A stretch of 64,000 bases of DNA from a virus (lineage: Duplodnaviria; Caudoviricetes): the IMG/VR virus record IMGVR_UViG_3300022876_000002; one strand, written 5' to 3'. Shown piece after piece: positions 2,910-50,856 of the stretch (the first letter of the stretch is position 1; each line of letters opens with the position of its first letter). Below the pieces are notes generated by a model that did not search any database, had not been told where the DNA came from, and saw only the letters and a program-made list of their open reading frames with translations. Made by a program: the position numbers and the translations under genes.

Positions 2910-3470
2910 TCACGACAACAACCGTTTACGCTTAAACGGGATGCTAATGCGACGCTCAGCTACAGACTCGTCACGGAAATACATTACAGCAGTGGAGGTA
3001 CTGGATGCCCAGTCCTCGTTGATGAAAAGACTGTACATCTTACCATCTACCGGGATTACCAACCGTTTGCGTATGGTACTGCAAAGGTAGTGGAAAATCC
3101 GCAGGTAACCGTACTCGAAGAACTCGGAGATCAGTGCGTATTGCACGGGACCGACCTGACACCCGTAGTACTCGGAGATGTTATCTGTTCTAGCGCGCAG
3201 CTGGCACATCGTTACCAAACGCTCGTCTACGTCCTCGTTGTTCAAGAACTTAAACGATGGGATAGATGGATCATTGATCAGTTCGATCATGCAGTCCACC
3301 CCAAACAAAAACTCACGTATCAAATACTTCGAATCTTTACCAAAAGTGTCCACCAATTCCTGGGTGAATTCAGGTCCAAAAACTGTATGGTAGTAATGCT
3401 CGGTGAGATTACCCAATTTGACAACACGGTTGGCGTGGTTATGCACTTTATGCACCTTGCTCATGGCCAA
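2910..3470 (-). CDS. hypothetical protein, paralog of 3531..4091
   Basis: 186 aa; shared VGP..I.EF.E..Y...L.I..DG..Y pattern. Confidence 0.8.
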   Translation of the reverse strand: MAMSKVHKVHNHANRVVKLGNLTEHYYHTVFGPEFTQELVDTFGKDSKYLIREFLFGVDCMIELINDPSIPSFKFLNNEDVDERLVTMCQLRARTDNISEYYGCQVGPVQYALISEFFEYGYLRIFHYLCSTIRKRLVIPVDGKMYSLFINEDWASSTSTAVMYFRDESVAERRISIPFKRKRLLS

Positions 3471-3492
3471 GTACCTTAAATTTAGTTTTACC

Positions 3493-17566: not shown

Positions 17567-17585
17567 ATACACTCGAGTAATGTAG
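17567..17585 (-). promoter_or_regulatory. early promoter-like motif CTACATTACT-CGAGTGTAT
   Basis: upstream of the 17517 start. Confidence 0.7.
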
Positions 17586-17654
17586 GTTTGTTTTATTACA
17601 AGAGTTAAAAACGTGCAGGGCTTACTAAATAGGGTAACTGGTTAAATAAAATTC

Positions 17655-19367: not shown

Positions 19368-19928
19368 TTAGTCACTCAGAACTTTGTTCTTACGCTGGAA
19401 CTCTTTCAGGGCCTCAGCAGCGATCTCTGGATCGATATCCGGATGCTGGTGCACGATACCGTCTTCCAGTTGCTTACGGATTACGTCCATTGCGATACGG
19501 AGTTTATTACCTTCCATCTCGTTTACTGAGCAATCCAAACTCCTCCAGTCTTCTGGATAATCTGGATGTTTGAATGTTTCAGTCAGTTTGAGCCTGACCG
19601 AGTGAAGTTGGGTAATTACGTACGACTCAAGGTAGCGATCATAAAGCAAGTCGCAATTCAGCAACTGACCTTGGTGGAAGTGCAACTTACCCATGTTGGC
19701 ATCGAGGATACCCGTGAAAGTCAGGAGGTCTTTCTCATAAGCCTCTTGAGCAGCCGGCTTATGCTCGATCGGGGCGTAATGATCGACCGAAGTGATACGA
19801 CCATCAGCACCAATATTGATGTTGCCAATACCAATGTCCCAACGAACTTGCGTGTGCGTGCCTTTCTTGATCTGAACCCCATGGAAATCCAGGTCCTCGT
19901 TGAAATTGATGTCAGTAACCCAACCCAT
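19368..19928 (-). CDS. hypothetical protein
   Basis: 186 aa, AAGGAG RBS. Confidence 0.75.
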   Translation of the reverse strand: MGWVTDINFNEDLDFHGVQIKKGTHTQVRWDIGIGNINIGADGRITSVDHYAPIEHKPAAQEAYEKDLLTFTGILDANMGKLHFHQGQLLNCDLLYDRYLESYVITQLHSVRLKLTETFKHPDYPEDWRSLDCSVNEMEGNKLRIAMDVIRKQLEDGIVHQHPDIDPEIAAEALKEFQRKNKVLSD

Positions 19929-19938
19929 GTCTTACTCC

Positions 19939-20622
19939 TTAGCGCATTGCCTGCAAACCGTTCAGGTTAAACAGAGTGAATTTACCAGACCGTGGTTTCC
20001 AGCCTTCCGTGTCGATGAAGTAAGTGTTGCCCAGTTTGAGTACTTCCTTAACCGGGTTATGCCCCACCACTACCGCACGGATGTTTTGTACCCGATCCTT
20101 TTCCTTGAACTCGAATTTACGGCGAGAGTACATGCAGCTGTTAGCTACCAGCTTACGCTCGCGTGGATGTTGGTCAGGTCCCAAACGTTCCAGCAGGGTA
20201 TTCCAATCGTCGAACGGACATTCCGCATGCACCAGTCCAACGACACCGTATTTGGTTTCTACTTCAATGGCCACCGGCAAGTCTTGGAAAGGTGCGGCGA
20301 ACATGACTTTCTCCTCGTCATTGAACGCCTCACTGAACCACTTACCGGCTTTGCCCAACCAGGACTCTACAGTGTCCCAGCGTGCTACGTGGTGGTCATG
20401 GTTGCCCATCACTGGATGGAACCACGGGTAAGACAACCACTCGAACGCACGCTTGTTCTCTGGCCCACGGTCTACCAGATCGCCTACACTAAACAAACGG
20501 TCTACAGTAGGGTCAAACTTAATGCGGTTCAACTCCCGTTGTAAGTAAGAAAAATGTCCGTGGATATCACCTACTGCAATGTCACGGCCCTCTTTGTTGA
20601 TACCAAATCGTTTTACTAACAT
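19939..20622 (-). CDS. calcineurin-like metallophosphoesterase (lambda NinI/PphA-like Ser/Thr protein phosphatase)
   Basis: GDIHG, GDLVDRGP, GNHD, VHA, VGHNP, IDT motifs. Confidence 0.9.
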   Translation of the reverse strand: MLVKRFGINKEGRDIAVGDIHGHFSYLQRELNRIKFDPTVDRLFSVGDLVDRGPENKRAFEWLSYPWFHPVMGNHDHHVARWDTVESWLGKAGKWFSEAFNDEEKVMFAAPFQDLPVAIEVETKYGVVGLVHAECPFDDWNTLLERLGPDQHPRERKLVANSCMYSRRKFEFKEKDRVQNIRAVVVGHNPVKEVLKLGNTYFIDTEGWKPRSGKFTLFNLNGLQAMR

Positions 20623-20634
20623 GATGAATCCTTT

Positions 20635-21084
20635 TCAAATGCCTAATCCCGGAACCCAGGTATACCATTGCCGATGCATTTTCAAACGGTATTCACCGCT
20701 ATCCGGATCGTAGGATACTTCTGGCCGTATATCTTTGACTACCTGGTCCAGCAACGTCTCTTCTGGAAACGGCTGGTTAGCTATGGCCATATCCAATAAA
20801 CCGTTTTCTTCTTTTCTGAGAGATTCCAGTAAAACGTTTAATGCTTCTTCATCTAGGCTAGGAAACCCTATAGCGAGCTGTTCAAGCCAGTTAGAGTTAG
20901 CACTGCCATCTACACGGGTTAACGGAGTAGTCTCCACAAAACGCACCGTAGCGTTCCGCACGGCGTCATAGAACAGGTCAGCATTGGTATTACAAGGATC
21001 ATCGAGATCTTTAACGACAGGCTCTGGAAACTTAGGGCGCTTAATAGGCCAAAGACTACGCAACAGTTCAATAAAAAATACCAT
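20635..21084 (-). CDS. hypothetical protein
   Basis: 149 aa. Confidence 0.7.
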   Translation of the reverse strand: MVFFIELLRSLWPIKRPKFPEPVVKDLDDPCNTNADLFYDAVRNATVRFVETTPLTRVDGSANSNWLEQLAIGFPSLDEEALNVLLESLRKEENGLLDMAIANQPFPEETLLDQVVKDIRPEVSYDPDSGEYRLKMHRQWYTWVPGLGI

Positions 21085-21106
21085 AATAAAAACCCTCTAA
21101 AGTAAG

Positions 21107-21134
21107 CTACCTGGTAGGCTAGCCTACCAGGTAG
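21107..21134. repeat. perfect 28-bp palindrome centred on CTAG (terminator-like)
   Basis: ctacctggtaggct|agcctaccaggtag. Confidence 0.85.
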
Positions 21135-21142
21135 TATAAAGG

Positions 21143-21700
21143 TTACTTGATGGTTGCTTCACGCTTACCGGTTTTGAACGCGTTCTCTGTAGCCTCATCA
21201 ACAACGATCTGGCAGAGTTTCAACACGTCCTTCTTCGGGAAATCTGCCAGGCGCAGGAAGAAGCCACGTACCAGCGTGTCACGCATGGTTTCGTACGAGG
21301 TACACACTTCGTTCTTGCGTGTCTGCGAGATCTGGAACTCGGTATTACCACCGATGATAACTGCCTGCACAGGCTTGAACATCGATGAATCAACATTCGG
21401 GTTCTGTTCCTGGATCCACTGCATGGTAGCCTGGCTACCCTTGTCGCCGTAACGCCCAGTAACCGCAGCAGTGATCACTTCTTTCAGGCCGTCAGTGTAC
21501 GTCTTGTTCAGACCCACCAACGTCTGGATCTTGATGGTCATGCTGGACAACACGTTCTGGGACTCGTTATCGAGCCGCTTGATGTCGTTCTCGATGGTAA
21601 TCGCGTTGTCGTGCATGCTCTGGTAACCCAAGAACAATGCAACACCACCCAACGCGCCCAGACCCAACAGTACCAACAGAGCAATGCCAATAGCTTTCAT
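21143..21700 (-). CDS. N-terminally anchored helical protein (LemA-like by pattern)
   Basis: N-terminal TM then coiled-coil; GRYG...MQWIQEQNP pattern. Confidence 0.6.
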   Translation of the reverse strand: MKAIGIALLVLLGLGALGGVALFLGYQSMHDNAITIENDIKRLDNESQNVLSSMTIKIQTLVGLNKTYTDGLKEVITAAVTGRYGDKGSQATMQWIQEQNPNVDSSMFKPVQAVIIGGNTEFQISQTRKNEVCTSYETMRDTLVRGFFLRLADFPKKDVLKLCQIVVDEATENAFKTGKREATIK

Positions 21701-21713
21701 GATTTTCCTTAAA

Positions 21714-22805
21714 TTAAGCGACGTCTTCTTTGATTACAACGTATGCCACGCCAACCGCAACCAAGAAGTTGAGGATGGATAGCGTTACCAACAGCCAAGT
21801 AGGTGGAATCCACCCATTGGTTAGATAAGCGAAGGTCTTGTTAGGGACCCGCTTGAAATCATTCTGAATAACTCGGTACTGGTCTTGGACCAACCCGATA
21901 TCCAGTGTGCGATCATAAGCCAAGCCTTCTACCTCTTTGAGCATAACTTGGTTGTTCTGCCCATCAGCAAAAGACATAGCCTTAGTCCACTGTACTTCCA
22001 GCTTGTCGTCAACACCATAGAAAATGACTACATCGTTTTTCTTGGTGCCTTTCCATGCTTCCATTACCGCATAGAAATAGTCTTGGTCGTATTGAGTTAC
22101 TACCAAGATAACGTTCAGCTGTTTCAGCGCACCGTCTTTACGCAACTGGTTGTTAAGCCAGATGTTAATGCCGTCAAAGTCGGTGGAGTCTCCAGGATCT
22201 TGTACGATGCGATTATAGCGATAATAATCGTGTACGTGGGGGTAACCTGGAATCTTACCCAAATACTTCGTACGGATCAAATCAGACGTATTAAAGCGGG
22301 TTCCGTCGAGTAGCATGTAGTTGCGCACATAACCGGCTACGGCAACAGGCTCATCTACGTCTACCATATCCCAGCGATCAGGGACCTCCATACCACGACG
22401 GTCAACCCGTTCGATGGTAAAGGTACCCAACGTGCTGTATACATCCCAGTCTACGTCGTACGAGTGTTCGTCACAGTACTTAGGCTGGCACACCTTACGC
22501 GTATGTTTCTTGCCCTTGGAGTCCGTCGTGGTCTCCATGTGACAGGTCTCACCACAAACATAGTGGTGGGAGCACGACACCTTAACTCGATCTTTGCCAG
22601 TAACGTAACCGTTAAAGATCGACGTGTCACCGATCATGCTAAACGATGACCCCCAGACCACCACCATGAATATTAGGGTACTGAGTATAACCCCAGTGCC
22701 CTGTAACAGCCATTCACGTATGGTGATATGGTGAGGCCAGATCCATCGACAAACCAATACCACCAGCAGGGCTGGTAGCAGTACCACTGGTAGGTACGTC
22801 CACAT
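21714..22805 (-). CDS. three-TM membrane protein with Cys/His-rich extracytoplasmic domain
   Basis: two N-terminal TMs, CSHHYVCGETC...CQPKYCDEH, C-terminal TM. Confidence 0.8.
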   Translation of the reverse strand: MWTYLPVVLLPALLVVLVCRWIWPHHITIREWLLQGTGVILSTLIFMVVVWGSSFSMIGDTSIFNGYVTGKDRVKVSCSHHYVCGETCHMETTTDSKGKKHTRKVCQPKYCDEHSYDVDWDVYSTLGTFTIERVDRRGMEVPDRWDMVDVDEPVAVAGYVRNYMLLDGTRFNTSDLIRTKYLGKIPGYPHVHDYYRYNRIVQDPGDSTDFDGINIWLNNQLRKDGALKQLNVILVVTQYDQDYFYAVMEAWKGTKKNDVVIFYGVDDKLEVQWTKAMSFADGQNNQVMLKEVEGLAYDRTLDIGLVQDQYRVIQNDFKRVPNKTFAYLTNGWIPPTWLLVTLSILNFLVAVGVAYVVIKEDVA

Positions 22806-23167
22806 TACCGGTTATCCTTAGCCTGTTCATAAGCCTTAGCTTTGTTAATAGCACGATCTTTGTGACATTGCGGGGTATCGTATTTACCAAGGCAATGTTT
22901 AAGATCGTAATCTTTAGCCCAAACCTTTACTTTCTCCGTTTGGGTTAGCACCCCGTAGGACAACGCCCAAACACCGAGCCCCGCAATAGTCAGCACACCC
23001 ACCCAATCCAACACAGTACGGAACCAGTGTGGTTTAGGGATCTGCCGCATGGGAGGTGGTTTAGGCGGCAACTTAGCTGTCGGTGGTATTGTTTTACCAG
23101 GCACCTTTGGAGGAGGTGCTGGTGGCGCCTTAGGACGCACTGGAGGGATAGAATCATTCCTCGGCAT
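22805..23167 (-). CDS. single-TM protein with CxGxYxTxxC loop (Pro-rich N-terminus)
   Basis: HCLGKYDTPQC. Confidence 0.8.
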   Translation of the reverse strand: MPRNDSIPPVRPKAPPAPPPKVPGKTIPPTAKLPPKPPPMRQIPKPHWFRTVLDWVGVLTIAGLGVWALSYGVLTQTEKVKVWAKDYDLKHCLGKYDTPQCHKDRAINKAKAYEQAKDNR

Positions 23168-23170
23168 AGA

Positions 23171-23434
23171 TCACCCCGGTAAGTAAGAGATAAGGAACCA
23201 GGCCATGCACACAACACTACCCAGAAGTAGTGCTACCCAAAAGTCATCATTTAGATCTTTTGGCTCTGGCTTGAACTTGCAGTAGTACACAATCTCTGGG
23301 TCAGGTTCAGGAGTATCCAACCTTTCGAATTCAGCGTCCTTCATAGACCAACTGGTGTTTATGAAGACACGTTCATCCTTGGGTATAAACTCTCCCTCAA
23401 TTACTGTTGTGTAATCCCTGCTGGTCGATGGCAT
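23171..23434 (-). CDS. C-terminally anchored membrane protein
   Basis: 87 aa; FWVALLLGSVVCMAWFLISYL. Confidence 0.7.
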   Translation of the reverse strand: MPSTSRDYTTVIEGEFIPKDERVFINTSWSMKDAEFERLDTPEPDPEIVYYCKFKPEPKDLNDDFWVALLLGSVVCMAWFLISYLPG

Positions 23435-23669
23435 TAGCAGCCTCCTCGTACTGACGTTTGAGTTCTGCCTTCTTCAAACGCGGGCCCAGACACTCGGGGG
23501 TCTCGTATTTACCCAGGCACCCGACACGATCAGCCTCTTCCTGCCTGGCGTCAGCGTTTATCTTGTCCTGGCGCGCATAGTAAAACAATCCGCCGTAAAG
23601 ACCTACCGCCAAGACTACAAATGCCAAGCACTTCCATACATTAGGAGTGATCATTTTTGGTTTGGTCAT
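23397..23669 (-). CDS. single-TM protein with CxGxYxTxxC loop
   Basis: GCLGKYETPEC. Confidence 0.8.
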   Translation of the reverse strand: MTKPKMITPNVWKCLAFVVLAVGLYGGLFYYARQDKINADARQEEADRVGCLGKYETPECLGPRLKKAELKRQYEEAANAIDQQGLHNSN

Positions 23670-23959
23670 TTCTCTGCCGCTCTGCGCTTCTGTTTGAGTT
23701 CATTGAGCTCACCTTTGTACTGGTGATCCAATGCCAGTTTAGCCTTACGGTAATCCAGACAAGCCAAAGTGGCGTACTTACCGGTGCAGTTTTCGAAAGA
23801 TTCTACTTCCTGCATTTGGTCACGTCGTTTATCCAGAGAGTTCTTAACCTTTACCATTTGGTAACCAGCAACTATAGCCAGCGGAATAATAACCATCAAG
23901 ACAAACAGAGCGAACTTAGGAATCCCGAGCCTGAACGACGGGAAGTTAGGTAGCATCAT
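23666..23959 (-). CDS. single-TM protein with CxGxYxTxxC loop
   Basis: NCTGKYATLAC. Confidence 0.8.
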   Translation of the reverse strand: MMLPNFPSFRLGIPKFALFVLMVIIPLAIVAGYQMVKVKNSLDKRRDQMQEVESFENCTGKYATLACLDYRKAKLALDHQYKGELNELKQKRRAAEK

Positions 23960-24213
23960 TACTTAGGTCTCCTGGACTCCAGCAACAACTGCTCGATTTT
24001 GTACTGGTGGCACGGGATAGTGTTGTACTCACCGACACAGTTAGCTTTGTCTTGCTTAGTCTGTGTTACCCGGTAAGCAATAACGGTGTCCATGCTAGCC
24101 TTAAAGATCATCCAGCAACCGGCAACGATACCCAACATCAACAGGACACCTTTAATGGTATCCCATTTAGGGTTTCTTTTAGTTGCAAACAGTTCTTCCA
24201 ACAGACCTTTCAT
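23959..24213 (-). CDS. single-TM protein with CxGxYxTxxC loop
   Basis: NCVGEYNTIPC; start MKGLL with ATGA overlap. Confidence 0.8.
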   Translation of the reverse strand: MKGLLEELFATKRNPKWDTIKGVLLMLGIVAGCWMIFKASMDTVIAYRVTQTKQDKANCVGEYNTIPCHQYKIEQLLLESRRPK

Positions 24214-24530
24214 TTTACTTCCTTCAATTTGGCTTCGTATTCTTCTTTGAGTCGGGCCTCTTTTAAGAGCCGCTCTAAGCAAGCAGAGGTGGCGTAAATA
24301 CCCTCACAGCTTTCCTCACGACTACGCCGGTCCCATTCACCAATCCAGTAGACACCAGTACCAAAAGCGAGGAACACTACCGCCAACCAGAAATAACCGG
24401 GGATCAGCTCGCCACGTTTATAACCGTAATTGTCGCGTTCGTCTAGCCAATCACTCAACCAGATTAACAAACGTTTGAATTTACCTACTTTTGGTTTGGG
24501 TGCACCAGCTACATCGCTACCATCACGCAT
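24210..24530 (-). CDS. single-TM protein with CxGxYxTxxC loop
   Basis: SCEGIYATSAC; probable start MRDGS. Confidence 0.75.
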   Translation of the reverse strand: MRDGSDVAGAPKPKVGKFKRLLIWLSDWLDERDNYGYKRGELIPGYFWLAVVFLAFGTGVYWIGEWDRRSREESCEGIYATSACLERLLKEARLKEEYEAKLKEVK

Positions 24531-24540
24531 ACCTAAACCC

Positions 24541-25140
24541 TCAATCACAGGAAGGAGAACTGCTATCACTGCTGTCGTAGGAAGGACTGCCGTAGTCGCT
24601 GTCACGGCTAGGACTACACGCCGGGGCACTACGGTTGTTATCGTCCGAAGACGACAGAACTGCGGCAGCCACCGCCACGTGCATCAGGGTGTTGTCATCA
24701 TGGTGATGGTGGTGGTGCGCATCACGAACGCTGCTGCTGGATGGCAACGGAGCTGGTTTAGGACGAGGTGCTGGTTTTGGTTGGTGCTGATGCTGGAAGA
24801 TACTCACCTGTGGTGCAGGTGGTGGTGACATGTTTGTCGGGAGGTTACCAACCATTTCTGCATATTCGCTTTCACGGATATGGTTTTTACGGTGCCGGTA
24901 CTCAGTGTCCCTCAGACCCAGACCAGTTTGTACCAAGGACTGGCCCTGTGGTTTGGGGCTGAGTTCCTCGATCTTATCACGGAGTTCCTGGTTCTCGCGC
25001 TTGAGCTTGTTGTTCTCGGCCTCAGCACGGGTTACCAATTGTTTGATTTTGATAACCAATACGAAGGCTGCCAACAAGCACAGCCCTACTACAATACCGG
25101 GAACAATAACCAGCATGTCCAACAAAGTAAACTTATCCAT
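24541..25140 (-). CDS. TM + coiled-coil protein with His run and Ser/Asp-rich tail
   Basis: 199 aa; HHHHHH and SSDSSSPSCD. Confidence 0.75.
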   Translation of the reverse strand: MDKFTLLDMLVIVPGIVVGLCLLAAFVLVIKIKQLVTRAEAENNKLKRENQELRDKIEELSPKPQGQSLVQTGLGLRDTEYRHRKNHIRESEYAEMVGNLPTNMSPPPAPQVSIFQHQHQPKPAPRPKPAPLPSSSSVRDAHHHHHHDDNTLMHVAVAAAVLSSSDDNNRSAPACSPSRDSDYGSPSYDSSDSSSPSCD

Positions 25141-25324
25141 TTAAACGCTCCATAGCTTTAATGTCTTTATCCAACAAGCTTTCGTACTTGTCGGCTGCCT
25201 CAGCAATGTTACCCAGGGCGTAAACAATAGCGATTACGCAAACCATGGGGACTACGCACATCGTGATAATGAATACCCAATCACCACGATCTAATTTACG
25301 AACCTTTCTTATTACGTGTTTCAA
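25133..25324 (-). CDS. small single-TM protein
   Basis: 63 aa. Confidence 0.65.
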   Translation of the reverse strand: MKHVIRKVRKLDRGDWVFIITMCVVPMVCVIAIVYALGNIAEAADKYESLLDKDIKAMERLNG

Positions 25325-25722
25325 TCATCCGACCCCTTACTGCCACCCCCACCCGATCCACCACCACTGTCATGACTGCTACTGCTGCCACTAGAACAAT
25401 GACTGTTATGGCCGATATCAAACCCAACATGCACACGACCAGTCGCAATGCCGTGTGTAAGTGAGTCGTTATCGTCTTTTGCTTTGTGGGTGGTACGTTT
25501 TGCCCTTGCTGTGCCATTACTGCTATTCCTTGTTTTGCTTCTGTGGACAATGTACCCGTCAGATGTATCGGTGTAAGGCAAGTCTTCACCATGCTTACGC
25601 AAGGCTTCCAAGAACTCACGGTCTTCCTTAGTCATTTTGCGGCGACTAACACCAAAGCTAAGAATCATACAAACGGTGCCCAGCAGTAATAATCCCGCTA
25701 TTACTCCCCCGACCATAAACAC
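25321..25722 (-). CDS. TM protein with Ser/Gly-rich tail
   Basis: 133 aa; SSGSSSSHDSGGGSGGGGSKGSDD. Confidence 0.75.
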   Translation of the reverse strand: MFMVGGVIAGLLLLGTVCMILSFGVSRRKMTKEDREFLEALRKHGEDLPYTDTSDGYIVHRSKTRNSSNGTARAKRTTHKAKDDNDSLTHGIATGRVHVGFDIGHNSHCSSGSSSSHDSGGGSGGGGSKGSDD

Positions 25723-25738
25723 CCCCTTAGTTAAAGTA

Positions 25739-25766
25739 CCTACTGGGGCTTGTGGGCCCCAGTAGG
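25739..25766. terminator. 11-bp hairpin cctactggggc/gccccagtagg
   Basis: intergenic. Confidence 0.7.
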
Positions 25767-25793
25767 ATTTACGTATTATTGCTAGGGGAGTAC

Positions 25794-26201
25794 TTATTTA
25801 CCACGCAGTTCTTTCAGCCTGCGCATACCCTCAGCCTGGGTCTCACGCAACGAATGACCCTTACCGTGATTGCGGTACCAGTCAATCCACTCACGGTTCA
25901 GACCGCAAGACATACCGCCTTGCAGTGGCGGTTCCTTACGTTCCACTTCAAGCAGTGCGCCAGCGGTTTTATACCATTGGTCACTAGGGCCTTGGTCGGT
26001 AGAGGCAGGATCGATAAAACTGTCGCACTCAGCAGCTTTTACTGGCGGGTTGCGGAACAGAGACTTACCCTCTTTGTCCACAGTGTTGCAAGAAGCATCC
26101 ACCATGTACATCGGTTCCTTTACACCGTCTACTACAACACGGTAAACCACCTTACCCTCGTGACTACGTCCAAGGGCATCAACACGAGCATTCTTATCCA
26201 T
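25794..26201 (-). CDS. hypothetical protein with C-terminal WxxW module
   Basis: GLNREWIDWYRNHGKGHSLRETQAEG. Confidence 0.75.
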   Translation of the reverse strand: MDKNARVDALGRSHEGKVVYRVVVDGVKEPMYMVDASCNTVDKEGKSLFRNPPVKAAECDSFIDPASTDQGPSDQWYKTAGALLEVERKEPPLQGGMSCGLNREWIDWYRNHGKGHSLRETQAEGMRRLKELRGK

Positions 26202-27204
26202 TGTCTTGTACCGGACGTGGGTCAACAACAGTTACCAAATCCTGGAGCTTGTCCAGGAGTTCTTCCAGTTCGCTTTGTTTAACCGTGTGCCAGAACGGGT
26301 TACCTACCTCAAGGCAAGCTTCCACAAGTTTGTGGGACACGTTAGGGTGCTTGCGGAAGATAGCCACAGCCATGTCTTCCATCAAATCGTTATCATGGAT
26401 ACCGACGGCGAACGCCACCCGGGTGAATTGGGTAAGGATTCGTCCCATCAGTTCAGACTTGCGCATGGTCGCACGACGGACCTCACCATAGCTACGATCA
26501 AACGAAGCCGACATCATGATGGAACGATTATTACCGATCGCCAGACCTCTACGCCCACGGAACTCGATCATGCGCGGGTATTTATCGATAAGCTCTTTGG
26601 CCTCTACCGCAGCAGCCACCTCGATAGGAGCGCCGTCAGCGGGGATAAACTCCATTCCGCCAGGAGGCCCTGCCAATGTTTGCGTGCTTTCTTCACGCAT
26701 TAGTGCGACAACCTGGGGATCGTCGGAGAGTACTTGTCCTTTGTCACAGACCTGAGCAACCCAATCACGTGCGTCAGGAATGCGCCCACGCACCACTGCG
26801 TCAAACTTCTCAGCCATAGGGCTGAGTTGTTCACAAGCAGCAAACGATTCACGGGTAAGCATGTCTCCATCCATATCACCCACCACGTCTTTGCCCATAC
26901 GAGCCAAACGACCAGACAGGTGCTTGATACGTTGTTCGGCGGCGTCCAACAGACGGTAGAAGTACATACCACGCTGGTAGAACTCGCGTTCTTCACGCAG
27001 GTAACCATTGAGCGTGTTCAGCTCGTGAGCCAACTCCTGGTCGGTCAAGTTACCCAGTTGGAGTTCACGACGATCCGCCAGGGAAGGATCGGATGCTTTG
27101 GCCAGGCTATCGAAACCTTCGTGGCCCTGAACGTAAGTGAACAGCTTAGCACCAAACTCTTCTACTGCTTGATCAGCTTTGCTTTGAAATTCATTCATTA
27201 CCAT
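26194..27204 (-). CDS. hypothetical protein
   Basis: 336 aa, helical/coiled-coil N-terminal half. Confidence 0.8.
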   Translation of the reverse strand: MVMNEFQSKADQAVEEFGAKLFTYVQGHEGFDSLAKASDPSLADRRELQLGNLTDQELAHELNTLNGYLREEREFYQRGMYFYRLLDAAEQRIKHLSGRLARMGKDVVGDMDGDMLTRESFAACEQLSPMAEKFDAVVRGRIPDARDWVAQVCDKGQVLSDDPQVVALMREESTQTLAGPPGGMEFIPADGAPIEVAAAVEAKELIDKYPRMIEFRGRRGLAIGNNRSIMMSASFDRSYGEVRRATMRKSELMGRILTQFTRVAFAVGIHDNDLMEDMAVAIFRKHPNVSHKLVEACLEVGNPFWHTVKQSELEELLDKLQDLVTVVDPRPVQDNG

Positions 27205-27631
27205 TGCTCCCGTATTGCATGAGATCGTTGAGGTTGTAATTGTCGCCGGTAAACGGCTTAGGGGCTGGGTTATTCAGTTTGAGGATACGCTCAACAGCCT
27301 CCCCACTCCAATCGATGGAACATTCACCTATCGTGAGGATGTCGCCCAGATCCCCTTTGCTCCAGGCCACATCACCATTACCACGACGGATGGAAATGGA
27401 GGTAAGGGTGTTAAACGTCTTTGGTATCCTGACGTTATACATCTTGATATTGTTGGACCAGTCGGGACGTTCCAGCTCACCACGCAGGAAGGCAATAACT
27501 TCGGAACGTTCTTCTGGCTTTAGTGGGATCTTGGAGTAAACAGCGTATTCAGTCCCGTGCTTAACTACCGTAGATCGAATTACCTCCACAATCCCCATAT
27601 CCAAGTCGAAACCAAAGACACGTTTGCTCAT
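27191..27631 (-). CDS. hypothetical protein
   Basis: 146 aa. Confidence 0.75.
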   Translation of the reverse strand: MSKRVFGFDLDMGIVEVIRSTVVKHGTEYAVYSKIPLKPEERSEVIAFLRGELERPDWSNNIKMYNVRIPKTFNTLTSISIRRGNGDVAWSKGDLGDILTIGECSIDWSGEAVERILKLNNPAPKPFTGDNYNLNDLMQYGSNGNE

Positions 27632-28098
27632 TCTTTTGCTCCCAGGGCAACCGCATACGCATGTGCCTCTTCTGGCGTCATACCGTCGTTGTAACAGATG
27701 AACAACAACCAGTCCAAGGCAACATACCCGTCGGCAGTAACGTTGCTCTTAGGAGGCTTGTAGAAGTCAGGAGGGGCTATGCCGAGATCTCTACGAATAC
27801 CTTCCTGAATAGCCACCCCGCTAGCACGAATGGCAACCGCCATTGGGCTATTAGTAAACTTACTAACCCGTGGATCGATTTCACGACGACCGATAGGAAT
27901 ACCGTCAGGACCCAAGATTACCCGAGTGTTCAGGAACTCGTTGATAGCATCGAAAGCTTTACGACCTTTTGCTACCTGCACTCCTACTAATGCATTTGCA
28001 GCAAACTGCACCCAGACTTCATTAACGACACCGTTGTCTTTGGTAAACAACGAGGGCTCGTTAACGCTGGGCTTGTACAAACCAAGATCATTACTCAT
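27628..28098 (-). CDS. hypothetical protein with two degenerate WxxW-type modules
   Basis: VVNEVWVQF..., YVALDWLLFICYNDGMTPEEA. Confidence 0.75.
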   Translation of the reverse strand: MSNDLGLYKPSVNEPSLFTKDNGVVNEVWVQFAANALVGVQVAKGRKAFDAINEFLNTRVILGPDGIPIGRREIDPRVSKFTNSPMAVAIRASGVAIQEGIRRDLGIAPPDFYKPPKSNVTADGYVALDWLLFICYNDGMTPEEAHAYAVALGAKE

Positions 28099-28502
28099 AT
28101 CAGATTGTCATCCCTTACAAAGGCGGTTACCCGTTTAGCATCAGTGGAAGGCCATTCGTGAGTGCCTTTCCAGCGAGCTGAGTTATACGTACAGTTTTCT
28201 TTGTTAGCGTACCACACCATCCAAGCCAGACTGAGACTTTTACCCAAGATGGTACATACCACCTTTTCTGGCTCAGGATAATCAATTACTCGGCGCGGTT
28301 CTTTAAGCAATTTATCAACTACTAACATACCAGCCGCTTGAGCCACAGCAATGGTGGCTCGTGGGTTCTTACGGATATACCACAGCATCCAAGCAGAACT
28401 TACCGGATAACGGTGGCTACCGGTGAAAACGCAAGGCTCGTCATTTGCAGGTTGGTATACATCGGATGCACCCAAGCGGTCGTTGACTTTGTCCTTACTC
28501 AT
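28095..28502 (-). CDS. hypothetical protein with two WxxW modules
   Basis: PVSSAWMLWYIRKN..., SLSLAWMVWYANKEN. Confidence 0.75.
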   Translation of the reverse strand: MSKDKVNDRLGASDVYQPANDEPCVFTGSHRYPVSSAWMLWYIRKNPRATIAVAQAAGMLVVDKLLKEPRRVIDYPEPEKVVCTILGKSLSLAWMVWYANKENCTYNSARWKGTHEWPSTDAKRVTAFVRDDNLI

Positions 28503-32693: not shown

Positions 32694-32712
32694 CTACACC
32701 TTAGTAATATAG
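32694..32712 (-). promoter_or_regulatory. early promoter-like motif CTATATTACT-AAGGTGTAG
   Basis: upstream of the 32668 start, just downstream of the 32737 hairpin. Confidence 0.7.
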
Positions 32713-32736
32713 ATGTATTAATCGTTTAAAGTTACC

Positions 32737-39887: not shown

Positions 39888-39906
39888 ATACACCCAAGTA
39901 ATACAG
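39888..39906 (-). promoter_or_regulatory. early promoter-like motif CTGTATTACT-TGGGTGTAT
   Basis: upstream of the 39844 start. Confidence 0.7.
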
Positions 39907-39948
39907 GTTTATAATAGCCTAGAAGTTAAATTAACCGCCCATAAGTAA

Positions 39949-40389
39949 TTACTTATCTTTCTTAATACCGAACGACATATCCCCGAAATACAGCTCACGC
40001 CCCATCCAGGTAGCAAACACTTGGTCTAATGCCAAGTGGTCGTGTGGGGACAGTTTGTAGCCCAGCGACATATGGAACATGGGGGTACCATATGAATGCT
40101 CGTAACCTGCTTCTTTGAGCAGGCGGAATTCTTCGAGCATTTGTGGGGACGTAAGGTGGAATACGTAAGCATCCCCCAGCACACCCATACTGATGATCTT
40201 AGCTGTAAACTCTTTGCTGCTGTCCAGCAAACAGAAAGGTTCAGCCAATTCACGTTCGTCGTACATCATGGTAACGTGCAGATCGTGTTTGTCACTAGGA
40301 GCACAACCAGCCTCCATGATCGCAGCGAACACGTCTTCTACCAGGTTGTCTCGCAGTGCTACGTTGATATAGCTAAAATCCAATTCCAT
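39949..40389 (-). CDS. 2H phosphoesterase, anti-CBASS Acb1 (T4 57B)-like
   Basis: 146 aa; H38-V-T40 and H106-M-S108 catalytic motifs, spacing 68. Confidence 0.75.
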   Translation of the reverse strand: MELDFSYINVALRDNLVEDVFAAIMEAGCAPSDKHDLHVTMMYDERELAEPFCLLDSSKEFTAKIISMGVLGDAYVFHLTSPQMLEEFRLLKEAGYEHSYGTPMFHMSLGYKLSPHDHLALDQVFATWMGRELYFGDMSFGIKKDK

Positions 40390-42585: not shown

Positions 42586-42822
42586 TTATTCGTTATCCCG
42601 AATGATCTTTTCCTGGCGCTTAATCTCTAACCTAGCGTCAGCTTTTATTTGTTGTCGCACACGGCAATCGAAGTTGTTGTGCAGGCCTTCACAACGGGCT
42701 TTATTAGAGGCTTCTCGCCAACTGTTAAACCCTTTGTACATCCCAAACAAACAAAATACGATAATTATAAATAGTGCGATTATAAACCAGCCTGGAGGGT
42801 CGTCATCATCCCAATGAGGCAT
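42586..42822 (-). CDS. single-TM protein with variant CxGxHxNxxC loop
   Basis: RCEGLHNNFDC after the TM. Confidence 0.75.
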   Translation of the reverse strand: MPHWDDDDPPGWFIIALFIIIVFCLFGMYKGFNSWREASNKARCEGLHNNFDCRVRQQIKADARLEIKRQEKIIRDNE

Positions 42823-47470: not shown

Positions 47471-49455
47471 TGCTGCATTTCCTTGATGGCGGTGATCAGT
47501 TGGTCAATGCTGGAAGCCTTAGATCCCTCTAGCATAGGGATACCCAGCGCGGTTGCTTTTAACACTTTACTCTTACTAGGTTTTTCTCCTTTCAGTAGGA
47601 ACTGACAGTCTTTGGTAAGGTCTTCCACGAGTTCGATCCCGTGGTTACCAAAGTACTCGATCAGTTCTTCACGGACAGGACCCAAAGACCCTGTGATAAC
47701 ACCCTTGAGGTCGCATACAGGGCCGGTATAAGGTGTGCAGTTGAGCCACTTAAGCAAATCCCTGGCATTCTCCCAAAACGCTTCTCTGCGCAATGCAGAG
47801 GTGATCTTGAGGGTCAGCCCAGGACCAAACCCAGGAACCTTACGTACCTGCTCAGGATCTTTCAGGAAGTCCAGAGCATTAGTAGTAGGTGCTCGGTCAT
47901 TACGTACGTCTTCTGGCAATGCATCAGCCAGCTTTTTAGCTCGTGTAATATCGACGCCGGGCAACCCCAATGCTTTAATCAGGATATGCCATGGCTGTCT
48001 ACGAGCCGCCTCAATACGGTCGTAGACTTTCTGACCGACATGGGACACTTTCAATATAGACACTACGTCTGATGTGTCGTTAATAATACCGAAGTCGATC
48101 AATTGACCCAGCTTAACTGGCCCCAGGTCTTCGATATCCAAACAACGTTTACCAACCAGAGCCACGCAACGCATCAGTAGCTGCGCAGGGCACTCAGAGA
48201 CGTTGTTACAGATGAGATCAGCGCTGAGCTTACTCGTACGTGTCTCTAGTACTGAACCACAGCTAGGGCACTCTGTAGGAGCTTTAAAGAGCTCCCCGTG
48301 TCCACCATCGACAACGCTATGCAGCCGAGGAATAACATCACCGTTCCGAGAAATTGAGATAATAGAGTCCGCACGGAGTTCTAGCGCCAAGAATTGATAG
48401 ATGTTGTCCAGGGAAGCGCGATCGCACATTACCCCGCCCAGTCTTACAGGTTTGTAGTTAATACATGGCACTACCCGCCCAGTCTTACCTACTTGCCAAT
48501 CCACACTAACGGGTTCGGTTTCTTTCTCCTCGTTAGGGAACTTGTAGGCAATTGCGTAGTTAGGGTATTTGTTAGTTACCCCCAGTTCGTCCCACTTAGC
48601 CAGGCTATTAATTTTCTTAACGATACCGTCTACCGGGATCTCAGGCAGGTAACGATTACGACGATAGTCATCTTCGTTGGCCTCTGGTGAGATACGGAAC
48701 CCCATGAGTCGCCACCAGAGCAGCAAGTCTTTGTACGTCTTACGACCAAACGTAGTGTCTGTCCAGTAGATACCGAAGTGCACTAACCCCTTAGCGTTCT
48801 TATCCTGGTTCTTTTCCAGCGCCCGGACAAACCCACTAGCCGCATTACGTGGTGTAGTTTTCGGTTTAGGGGCGATCTCGTTATAAGAGTCAAAGTTGTA
48901 GATGGGGAGGTAGCCCTCGCCACGTACTTCAAATGACTTGATATCTTTATTCTCTACTTTGATAATTGTAGGGATCTGTCCTTCCTGGAACATTGGTAGG
49001 GCGTGGGTAACGTCTTCACCTTCCAGGCCACTACCACGAGTAGTAATGGATTTCAGGTGCATCCAGGTGTCTGGCTGACGTTCGTAGAACAACGACAGTG
49101 CGATACCGTCCAGTTTGTACTCGTCGACGAACTCTTCGTCTGGGTGCTTATCAGTAAACGCTGTGACTTCCTCTATGGACAAAGCTTTCTTTAAGCTGAG
49201 CATTGGGTTGTCAAAGGTTACGATGTCCAACCCAGCGCCAGTCGGCTCGTGGATCGGTACTGGCTTGTTCTGGATTTCGAACAGTTCTGCTATCTCAGGG
49301 TTATTAGCCTTGAGTTCATCGAAACGCTTAACCATATCGTCGTAGACGTGGTTAGGAATCTCTGCATTGTCCTTGTTGAAATACAGATCGGCGTGGTAGA
49401 GGATCTCATTATTGAGCTCCTGCATCTCCACGAACACTGAATTCTTGTTTAACAT
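47467..49455 (-). CDS. ligA: NAD-dependent DNA ligase
   Basis: EYKLDG adenylation motif, FEVRGE, DGIVKK, AYKF, OB-fold, CPSC/C...C zinc finger, HhH, C-terminal BRCT. Confidence 0.97.
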   Translation of the reverse strand: MLNKNSVFVEMQELNNEILYHADLYFNKDNAEIPNHVYDDMVKRFDELKANNPEIAELFEIQNKPVPIHEPTGAGLDIVTFDNPMLSLKKALSIEEVTAFTDKHPDEEFVDEYKLDGIALSLFYERQPDTWMHLKSITTRGSGLEGEDVTHALPMFQEGQIPTIIKVENKDIKSFEVRGEGYLPIYNFDSYNEIAPKPKTTPRNAASGFVRALEKNQDKNAKGLVHFGIYWTDTTFGRKTYKDLLLWWRLMGFRISPEANEDDYRRNRYLPEIPVDGIVKKINSLAKWDELGVTNKYPNYAIAYKFPNEEKETEPVSVDWQVGKTGRVVPCINYKPVRLGGVMCDRASLDNIYQFLALELRADSIISISRNGDVIPRLHSVVDGGHGELFKAPTECPSCGSVLETRTSKLSADLICNNVSECPAQLLMRCVALVGKRCLDIEDLGPVKLGQLIDFGIINDTSDVVSILKVSHVGQKVYDRIEAARRQPWHILIKALGLPGVDITRAKKLADALPEDVRNDRAPTTNALDFLKDPEQVRKVPGFGPGLTLKITSALRREAFWENARDLLKWLNCTPYTGPVCDLKGVITGSLGPVREELIEYFGNHGIELVEDLTKDCQFLLKGEKPSKSKVLKATALGIPMLEGSKASSIDQLITAIKEMQQ

Positions 49456-50824: not shown

Positions 50825-50843
50825 ATACGTCAAGGTAATATAG
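50825..50843 (-). promoter_or_regulatory. early promoter-like motif CTATATTACC-TTGACGTAT
   Basis: shares upstream ATTATAAAC with the 39897 copy. Confidence 0.65.
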
Positions 50844-50856
50844 GTTTATAATCCCT

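Follow-up and report, generated by a model that had tools for sequence, protein, structure and literature searches.

Some of the most familiar proteins by which phages control superinfection and the timing of lysis, such as T4 RI, Imm and Sp, are small membrane proteins facing the periplasm. A similar layout can also block an envelope sensor, as in E. coli MgrB, a 47-amino-acid (aa) bitopic N-in/C-out host peptide in which two periplasmic cysteines are needed to inhibit PhoQ; its Cys spacing differs from that of the proteins studied here, to which it is likened by description only. For phages of the phiKZ type, the definition of the lysis cassette dates only from 2026, and the existence of a lysis-inhibition system is so far a suspicion (PMC12894885). 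Here we report the analysis of a family of six small single-pass membrane proteins (m1-m6), five of them encoded in an array, in a 64,000-nucleotide (nt) stretch of DNA from a virus of the Caudoviricetes (IMG/VR record IMGVR_UViG_3300022876_000002), the whole of which is referred to as the window.

The T4 antiholin RI (rI, NP_049717, 97 aa) seems to be the closest analogue in layout, as it shares with the window proteins an N-terminal hydrophobic segment, helices, a close Cys pair and a C-terminal helix, which in RI carries a conserved aromatic residue. RI acts by binding the periplasmic domain of another membrane protein, the holin ectodomain, and its cysteines are conserved and likely to form a disulfide (PMC11413866). 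Homology between RI and the window proteins is not detectable; the layouts agree by inspection, the periplasmic location and the disulfide of the latter being putative. The Cys spacing is C-x5-C in RI and C-x8-C in the window proteins, RI is encoded by a single-copy gene whereas five or six paralogues with true transmembrane (TM)-like segments are found here, and no T-type holin is known near the array. SPN3US gp116 (69 aa) is likewise small and membrane-tethered, with the order TM, helix, Cys ... Cys, helix, but its spacing is C-x17-C, and proteins of the gp116/gp118 type are encoded by one or two genes instead of an array; the hhalign comparison with the family returned a probability of 0.26%, indicating that the two are not homologous. 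Since the combination of a TM segment and two cysteines is also seen in RI and gp116, neither of them homologous, it is a recurring kind of layout, of which the present family is a new version with a fixed C-x8-C spacing and five or six paralogues. The phiKZ holin gp142 is a class IIIB holin with a single TM domain, N-in/C-out topology, a large domain in the cytoplasm and a small one in the periplasm (PMC12894885). It has no cysteines, and hhalign gave a probability of 0.17% against the family.

The five array genes and the dispersed sixth gene, together with their loops, were all found where the original prediction had placed them, on the minus strand. These genes, and an open reading frame (ORF) lying among them, are as follows:

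22805-23167, minus strand: m1, 120 aa; TM at residues 55-75; loop CLGKYDTPQC; short charged tail
23171-23434, minus strand: unrelated tail-anchored ORF between m1 and m2, 87 aa; C-terminal TM; no Cys loop
23397-23669, minus strand: m2, 90 aa; TM at residues 14-32; loop CLGKYETPEC; charged tail of 30 aa
23666-23959, minus strand: m3, 97 aa; TM of high hydrophobicity; loop CTGKYATLAC
23959-24213, minus strand: m4, 84 aa, ATG at 24213; loop CVGEYNTIPC; tail HQYKIEQLLLESR
24210-24530, minus strand: m5, 106 aa, ATG at 24530; TM at residues 45-64; loop CEGIYATSAC; tail LERLLKEARLKEEYEAKLKE
42586-42822, minus strand: m6, 78 aa; dispersed; acidic N-terminus; aberrant loop CEGLHNNFDC

The members thus range from 78 to 120 aa, each with a single TM helix, a C-x8-C loop and a charged C-terminal helix, and the core motif of the six loops is C-x-G-x-[YFH]-x-T-x-x-C. 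A variable basic N-terminus was initially attributed to every member, but m6 starts with an acidic one and m5 with one of mixed charge. In m1 the N-terminal 55 residues or so are basic and proline-rich, in m5 the Cys loop starts just 11 residues past the TM, and in m6 a segment rich in lysine and arginine (K/R) follows the TM. The description of the five genes as a near-tandem array is correct except for the interposed 87-aa ORF. ATG codons fitting the stops of the neighbouring genes were preferred as starts; with these, start and stop codons overlap by 4 nt (ATGA) in m5/m4, by 1 nt in m4/m3 and by 4 nt (ATGA) in m3/m2, and the m1 stop shares 1 nt with the start of the next gene. All products of the operon have a hydrophobic anchor, and the five array genes, being translationally coupled, would be made together.

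The six genes are a true paralogous family. In a six-frame translation of the window the pattern C-x-G-x-[YHFW]-x4-C occurred six times, always within the m1-m6 ORFs, compared with a mean of 0.53 occurrences in 200 mononucleotide shuffles. When phmmer was run on a database of 700 ORFs, the members were linked at E values of 1e-3 to 1e-5, m6 being joined via m5. Among 1.84 billion representatives, a profile built from the six sequences found 34 proteins at E < 1e-3, 33 of which are 68-172 aa long with the same layout of TM, C-x8-C loop and charged tail. The family clusters in public data besides the six window members, about 33, all lie on metagenome contigs, the longest of 164-243 kb. The 544-aa repeat protein P0013 matched the profile through its CPGRYNTMTC units and was set aside as a motif-level resemblance only.

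An alignment of 37 sequences (A3) was the basis of the figures for conservation, charge and hidden Markov model (HMM) searches. Both cysteines are invariant in all 37 sequences and the G and T of the motif are conserved in at least 90%, while the mean column identity is 17%. The predicted signature C-x-G-x-Y-x-T-x-x-C was therefore borne out for its two cysteines but not for its glycine, which varies in relatives such as CLLRYETSSC and CEASYRTSAC. The family HMM retrieved exactly six ORFs from the window at E <= 1e-16, the next ORF scoring 0.14, which confirmed the membership originally proposed; across all fetched loci, members scored E <= 1.4e-11 and all other ORFs E >= 0.13. That the genes might be spurious ORFs was excluded by their conservation and by the ratios of nonsynonymous to synonymous substitution rates (dN/dS) given below.

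No described family corresponds to these proteins. None of the 37 members matched a Pfam family at E <= 0.01, and PHROGs and NCBIfam returned matches to single members only, at E values of at least 3.7e-4. A match to an i-spanin (Rz-like) family, phrog_1152, touched one of the 37 members at E 0.005, no search having been made for an adjacent lipoprotein (o-spanin) gene; in the comparison with i-spanins, the members measure 68-172 aa with ectodomains of 45-65 aa. Among PDB sequences no significant match was found, and the top one, Serratia SMA2266 (4b6i), had E 0.84 with only the second cysteine aligned and was taken as noise. With m1 and m4 as queries, tblastn gave nothing at E <= 1 in 50,697 GenBank phage records. 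No family member was detected by hmmsearch in the 136-180 kb region of Pseudomonas phage EL, the counterpart of the window, and the A3 profile search of the EL and Ea35-70 records yielded no candidates at first look.

Phage EL, a member of the phiKZ-like nucleus-forming group, is nevertheless the closest relative at the protein level. The window has no near-DNA match among GenBank phages, but its baseplate protein and NAD ligase are 47% and 40% identical to those of EL, with which it also shares the gene order ligase, RNase H, DHH phosphoesterase, GNAT, Kelch; after EL, the nearest is Erwinia phage RisingSun. Identical or related proteins occur on compost and soil metagenome contigs of up to 228-243 kb, and the source is an uncultured soil or compost jumbo phage related to EL. 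The entire array segment, 22805-24530, is present as contigs in nine soil metatranscriptome runs (2018-2019), while in fifteen further runs some 45% of the words of this segment occur, which a relative presumably contributed; such contigs show no strand, level or timing and may be carried-over DNA, and they were not used as evidence of expression. To judge from these searches, the family appears to be previously undescribed and confined so far to metagenomic contigs of jumbo-phage size related to this uncultured EL-like phage.

The arrays of related contigs were then compared with that of the window (m5, m4, m3, m2, m1 in the direction of transcription). Four of them are arranged as follows:

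L002: m5, m4, m2, m1, m3
L007: a different C-x8-C protein, m5, m4, a 33-aa peptide, a second m4-like protein, a tail-anchored 86-aa protein, m1
L010: m5, m4, a 43-aa peptide, an m5-like protein, a tail-anchored protein, m1; a further member before a phosphatase gene
L011: a Ser/Asp-tailed protein, a 72-aa protein, an m6-like member, m4, a 105-aa and a 43-aa protein, m1, phrog_2087, phrog_1383

In a tree of loops and tails the sequences clustered by subfamily and not by phage. In the m4 clade (support 99/97) five lineages are represented by one member each, the m1 clade (84/87) has members from four lineages and the m5 clade (81/74) from five, and the m6 clade is supported at 100/98. Values of dN/dS against the close relative L005 were 0.04-0.55; against L002, a 54%-identical relative, they were 0.14-0.15 for m1 and m2, dS being saturated for m3-m5. 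Between the window and the L002 orthologues, identity was 50-100% in the loop and 40-88% in the tail, compared with 25-68% in the N-terminus, TM and juxtamembrane region; the m4 tail HQYKIEQLLLESR is nearly identical between lineages, and m3 diverges fastest, with 34% identity to its L002 counterpart. The extended N-terminus of m1 is kept in L002 and in P0017, P0019, P0030 and P0031, and the L005 counterpart of m5 is also called as a gene of 106 aa. The m6 gene lies directly upstream of the DHH phosphoesterase gene, and its position between RNase H and DHH genes is kept in other phages; in L013 and L014 its orthologue P0029 lies in an equivalent RNase H ... DHH ... Acb1-like gene order.

As the clades span lineages, dN/dS is low and loop and tail are the best kept parts, the paralogues are old and individually constrained by purifying selection. 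The array had been read at first as diversified against a common target, an interpretation not supported by the age of m1, m4 and m5, by the dN/dS values or by the loop and tail that each conserves as its own; it does not look like a rapidly diversifying battery. Conservation of a loop and tail specific to each subfamily would fit distinct fixed partners or distinct subunits.

Other small TM proteins with C-x8-C loops stand at the array heads of L007 (129-353, CPLPQMSPVC) and L006 (202-441, CMLPVYSPIC); the family HMM misses them (E 1.7-4.1).

The predicted architecture of one TM, a short helix, a 10-residue Cys loop and a charged C-terminal helix was recovered both in the 37-sequence alignment and in an AlphaFold2 model of m2 obtained with the family alignment. 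The model has a mean predicted local distance difference test score (pLDDT) of 85, with a helix at residues 9-50 (TM and extension) that leads through a loop (51-57) into another helix (58-88). Foldseek found no match to it in the PDB, and a search of the ESM Atlas gave a best feature score of 0.80, which is at chance level, and no structure match. The VIA-align comparison of the model with 48,161 chains retrieved only generic long coiled coils (Z <= 5.4, root mean square deviation 5-10 A) and was considered uninformative for a two-helix protein.

Charge distribution suggests an N-in/C-out topology. Over the 15 residues flanking the TM the mean net charge of the 37 sequences is +1.9 on the N-terminal side and -0.1 on the C-terminal side, and by sequence the N-terminal flank is the more positive in 29, equal in 5 and the less positive in 3. 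Members of the m1 subfamily carry 35-108 basic, proline-rich residues before the TM, with 7-20 K/R and without a signal peptide; since such an N-terminus is hardly exportable, it is expected to lie inside. All 37 sequences have exactly two cysteines beyond the TM. Exported proteins of DsbA-containing bacteria are known to be biased towards an even number of cysteines, and an invariant pair in a small and very variable domain fits a structural disulfide of an exported domain. Taken over the family, we consider N-in/C-out topology fairly probable from the sequences, with the proviso that m6 and its orthologue may be inverted.

From the observed gene family, its conservation, its invariant cysteines and its operon layout we infer, tentatively, a set of N-in/C-out anchors, each displaying a disulfide-stapled periplasmic helix-loop-helix that binds a fixed partner through loop and tail and affects envelope events in an RI-like manner. 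On insertion the N-terminus would stay cytoplasmic and the TM helix would extend about 10-25 residues into the periplasm, where the two invariant cysteines would close the 10-residue loop by a disulfide; a charged amphipathic helix would follow the loop, and the conserved loop and tail would form the working surface. Since the loop and tail of each subfamily have stayed the same from one phage lineage to another, each would bind its fixed partner either within the periplasm or on the inner membrane's outer face. By analogy with T4 RI, the role might, at a guess, be to regulate or protect envelope events (lysis timing, superinfection sensing or exclusion) and not an enzymatic one. Several observations weigh against this proposal. 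The topology originally predicted is backed by net charge and by the m1 N-termini, but not by K+R counts, which are near balance (higher on the N-terminal side in 18 and on the C-terminal side in 13 of the 37); m6 and its orthologue combine an acidic N-terminus with 4 K/R in the 15 residues past the TM, and m3 has 5 there, more than before it, so that by this count these proteins look N-out. To our knowledge, no antiholin or exclusion system uses as many as five or six retained paralogues. The family is missing from EL and phiKZ and is therefore not core to the phiKZ-like group. The hhalign comparison of A3 with RI gave a probability of 0.58% and an E value of 0.1, the Cys pairs being aligned without significance, and in one study the N-terminal segment of RI is reported as a cleavable signal peptide and not a membrane anchor (PMC8385771). 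Moreover, the phiKZ lysis cassette (spanins, holin gp142, regulator and endolysin) adjoins the tail sheath gene (PMC12894885), whereas PHROG scans found no lysis family among the genes at 19368-28502 and no tail sheath or lysis family among the larger ORFs of the window.

The last points bear equally on the idea that there are lethal, holin-like membrane proteins of the gp142 (class IIIB) type among the members, with m1 as the foremost candidate. The gross layout of gp142, a large cytoplasmic N-terminal region and a small C-terminal ectodomain, is indeed shared by m1, but gp142 has neither cysteines nor similarity to the family, the m1 search of GenBank phages was empty and no endolysin or spanin gene was seen among the scanned neighbours, which makes this explanation highly improbable. 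The K/R residues past the TM of m6, its orthologue and m3 could instead mean that at least some members are N-out/C-in, in which case a reduced Cys pair would bind a metal across two chains, in the manner of a zinc hook, and dimerise the helices; a conserved His after the second cysteine in the m1 and m4 subfamilies and the charged C-terminal tails with 7-15 K/R would suit such an arrangement. We regard it as improbable, given that the long basic N-termini of the m1 subfamily are not plausibly exported, which implies N-in for their single-TM homologues, that net charge favours N-in in most of the 37 sequences, and that metal-binding sites do not usually have a C-x8-C spacing in which G, an aromatic residue, T and often P are conserved, as far as is generally known. 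If the paralogues did not bind host targets independently but were subunits of one hetero-oligomeric inner-membrane assembly, built jointly with the remaining small operon products (the 87-aa tail-anchored protein, TM peptides of 33-63 aa and a Ser/Asp-tailed 199-aa protein), this would account for the translational coupling and for the fact that all operon products are membrane-anchored. Five lineages have in common the set of Ser/Asp-tailed protein, m5, m4, small TM peptide, tail-anchored protein and m1, and the retention of one member per subfamily over long divergence is typical of complexes built from paralogues. Yet gene order and copy number differ, L002 having a different order and L010 three m5-like copies, neither m2 nor m3 occurs in L007, L010 or L011, and m6 lies 18 kb away in another operon; a predicted complex of the m1, m4, m5 and m2 ectodomains scored 0.01 with chain pLDDT below 40 and carries no weight either way. 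Such an assembly is rather unlikely but has to be taken seriously, and the fixed-partner reading is the one we retain, with the reserve expressed above.

The remaining features of the operon flank the array on both sides:

21107-21134: hairpin, stem of 12 bp, after phrog_1383
21143-21700, minus strand: phrog_1383, 185 aa; membrane protein at the operon end
21714-22805, minus strand: phrog_2087, 363 aa; membrane protein with two TMs and a Cys-rich middle, downstream of the array
24541-25140, minus strand: context protein, 199 aa; TM, coiled coil, disordered P/Q/H-rich stretch with a His run, short hydrophobic patch, Ser/Asp-rich tail

The 199-aa protein precedes the array here and in relatives, with counterparts in L002 (3644-4276), L005, L006, L007 and L011 (3194-3874), and its family matches are weak only (phrog_10669, E 5e-4; DivIC, E 0.0045). 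The 87-aa tail-anchored protein is identical to that of L005 in 87 of 87 residues, the nucleotide changes being synonymous only, and tail-anchored ORFs of 86 aa occupy the position equivalent to 23171-23434 in L007 and L010. Small TM ORFs are also found upstream of the array. The phrog_2087/phrog_1383 pair is present in L005 and L011 and absent in L002, L007 and L010, and it is a separate cassette, inserted relative to the latter three and widespread in unrelated phages: it occurs at about 45% identity in Agricanvirus jumbo phages and in 110-116 kb phages of Enterobacter, Erwinia, Pantoea and Providencia, and also in many Salmonella and Klebsiella phages. The neighbourhood of the array consists of accessory genes, among them those of a NinI-like phosphatase and of Kelch proteins as well as numerous uncharacterized ones, with no virion or replication genes in the array region; the counterpart region of EL carries GNAT genes.

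A scan for sigma-70 promoters found 4, compared with 9.9 expected from shuffles. The motif TATAAACCTRTATTAC has exactly two copies upstream of genes, at 39898-39913 and 50835-50850 on the minus strand, and weaker copies at 32704-32719, 17577-17592 and 48441-48456, giving 5 in total vs 0.77 expected. It ends in TATTAC, which we take to be a feature of phiKZ early promoters; this early-promoter-like motif occurs elsewhere in the window and not directly upstream of the membrane operon. Between a 144-aa gene and the first gene of that operon, a strong GC-rich hairpin, CCTACTGGGGC ... GCCCCAGTAGG (about 25739-25766, minus strand), may be a terminator or an RNA-processing site. In the same area, the C-terminal part of the product of ORF 25296-25619 (minus strand) has a clear homologue in L002, a TM protein of 57 aa (3315-3488), and a 133-aa ORF at 25321-25722, without an L002 counterpart, overlaps it in another frame; either one of the two ORF calls may be wrong or the genes may overlap. 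Farther away, the 146-aa gene at 39949-40389 has counterparts in L013 (5372-5815) and L014 (3592-4035) with a weak match to Pfam Acb1 (PF23474), in agreement with a separate early proposal that it encodes an Acb1-like phosphodiesterase.

The family, known from uncultured phages alone, provides a clean, conserved and Cys-marked set of proteins, for which a DsbA-dependent disulfide and a partner binding dependent on loop and tail are predicted. Together with the non-homologous two-Cys peptides of SPN3US, it hints at a recurring and unexplored theme in phiKZ-like phages. A broader view, which we consider decidedly unlikely, is that the co-translated set and the other tiny membrane proteins of the operon constitute a dedicated, phage-built apparatus of the inner membrane and periplasm, belonging to one clade of EL-like jumbo phages. 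If so, its task might be to detect or prevent secondary infection or to gate lysis, and nothing comparable would exist in the phages studied to date.

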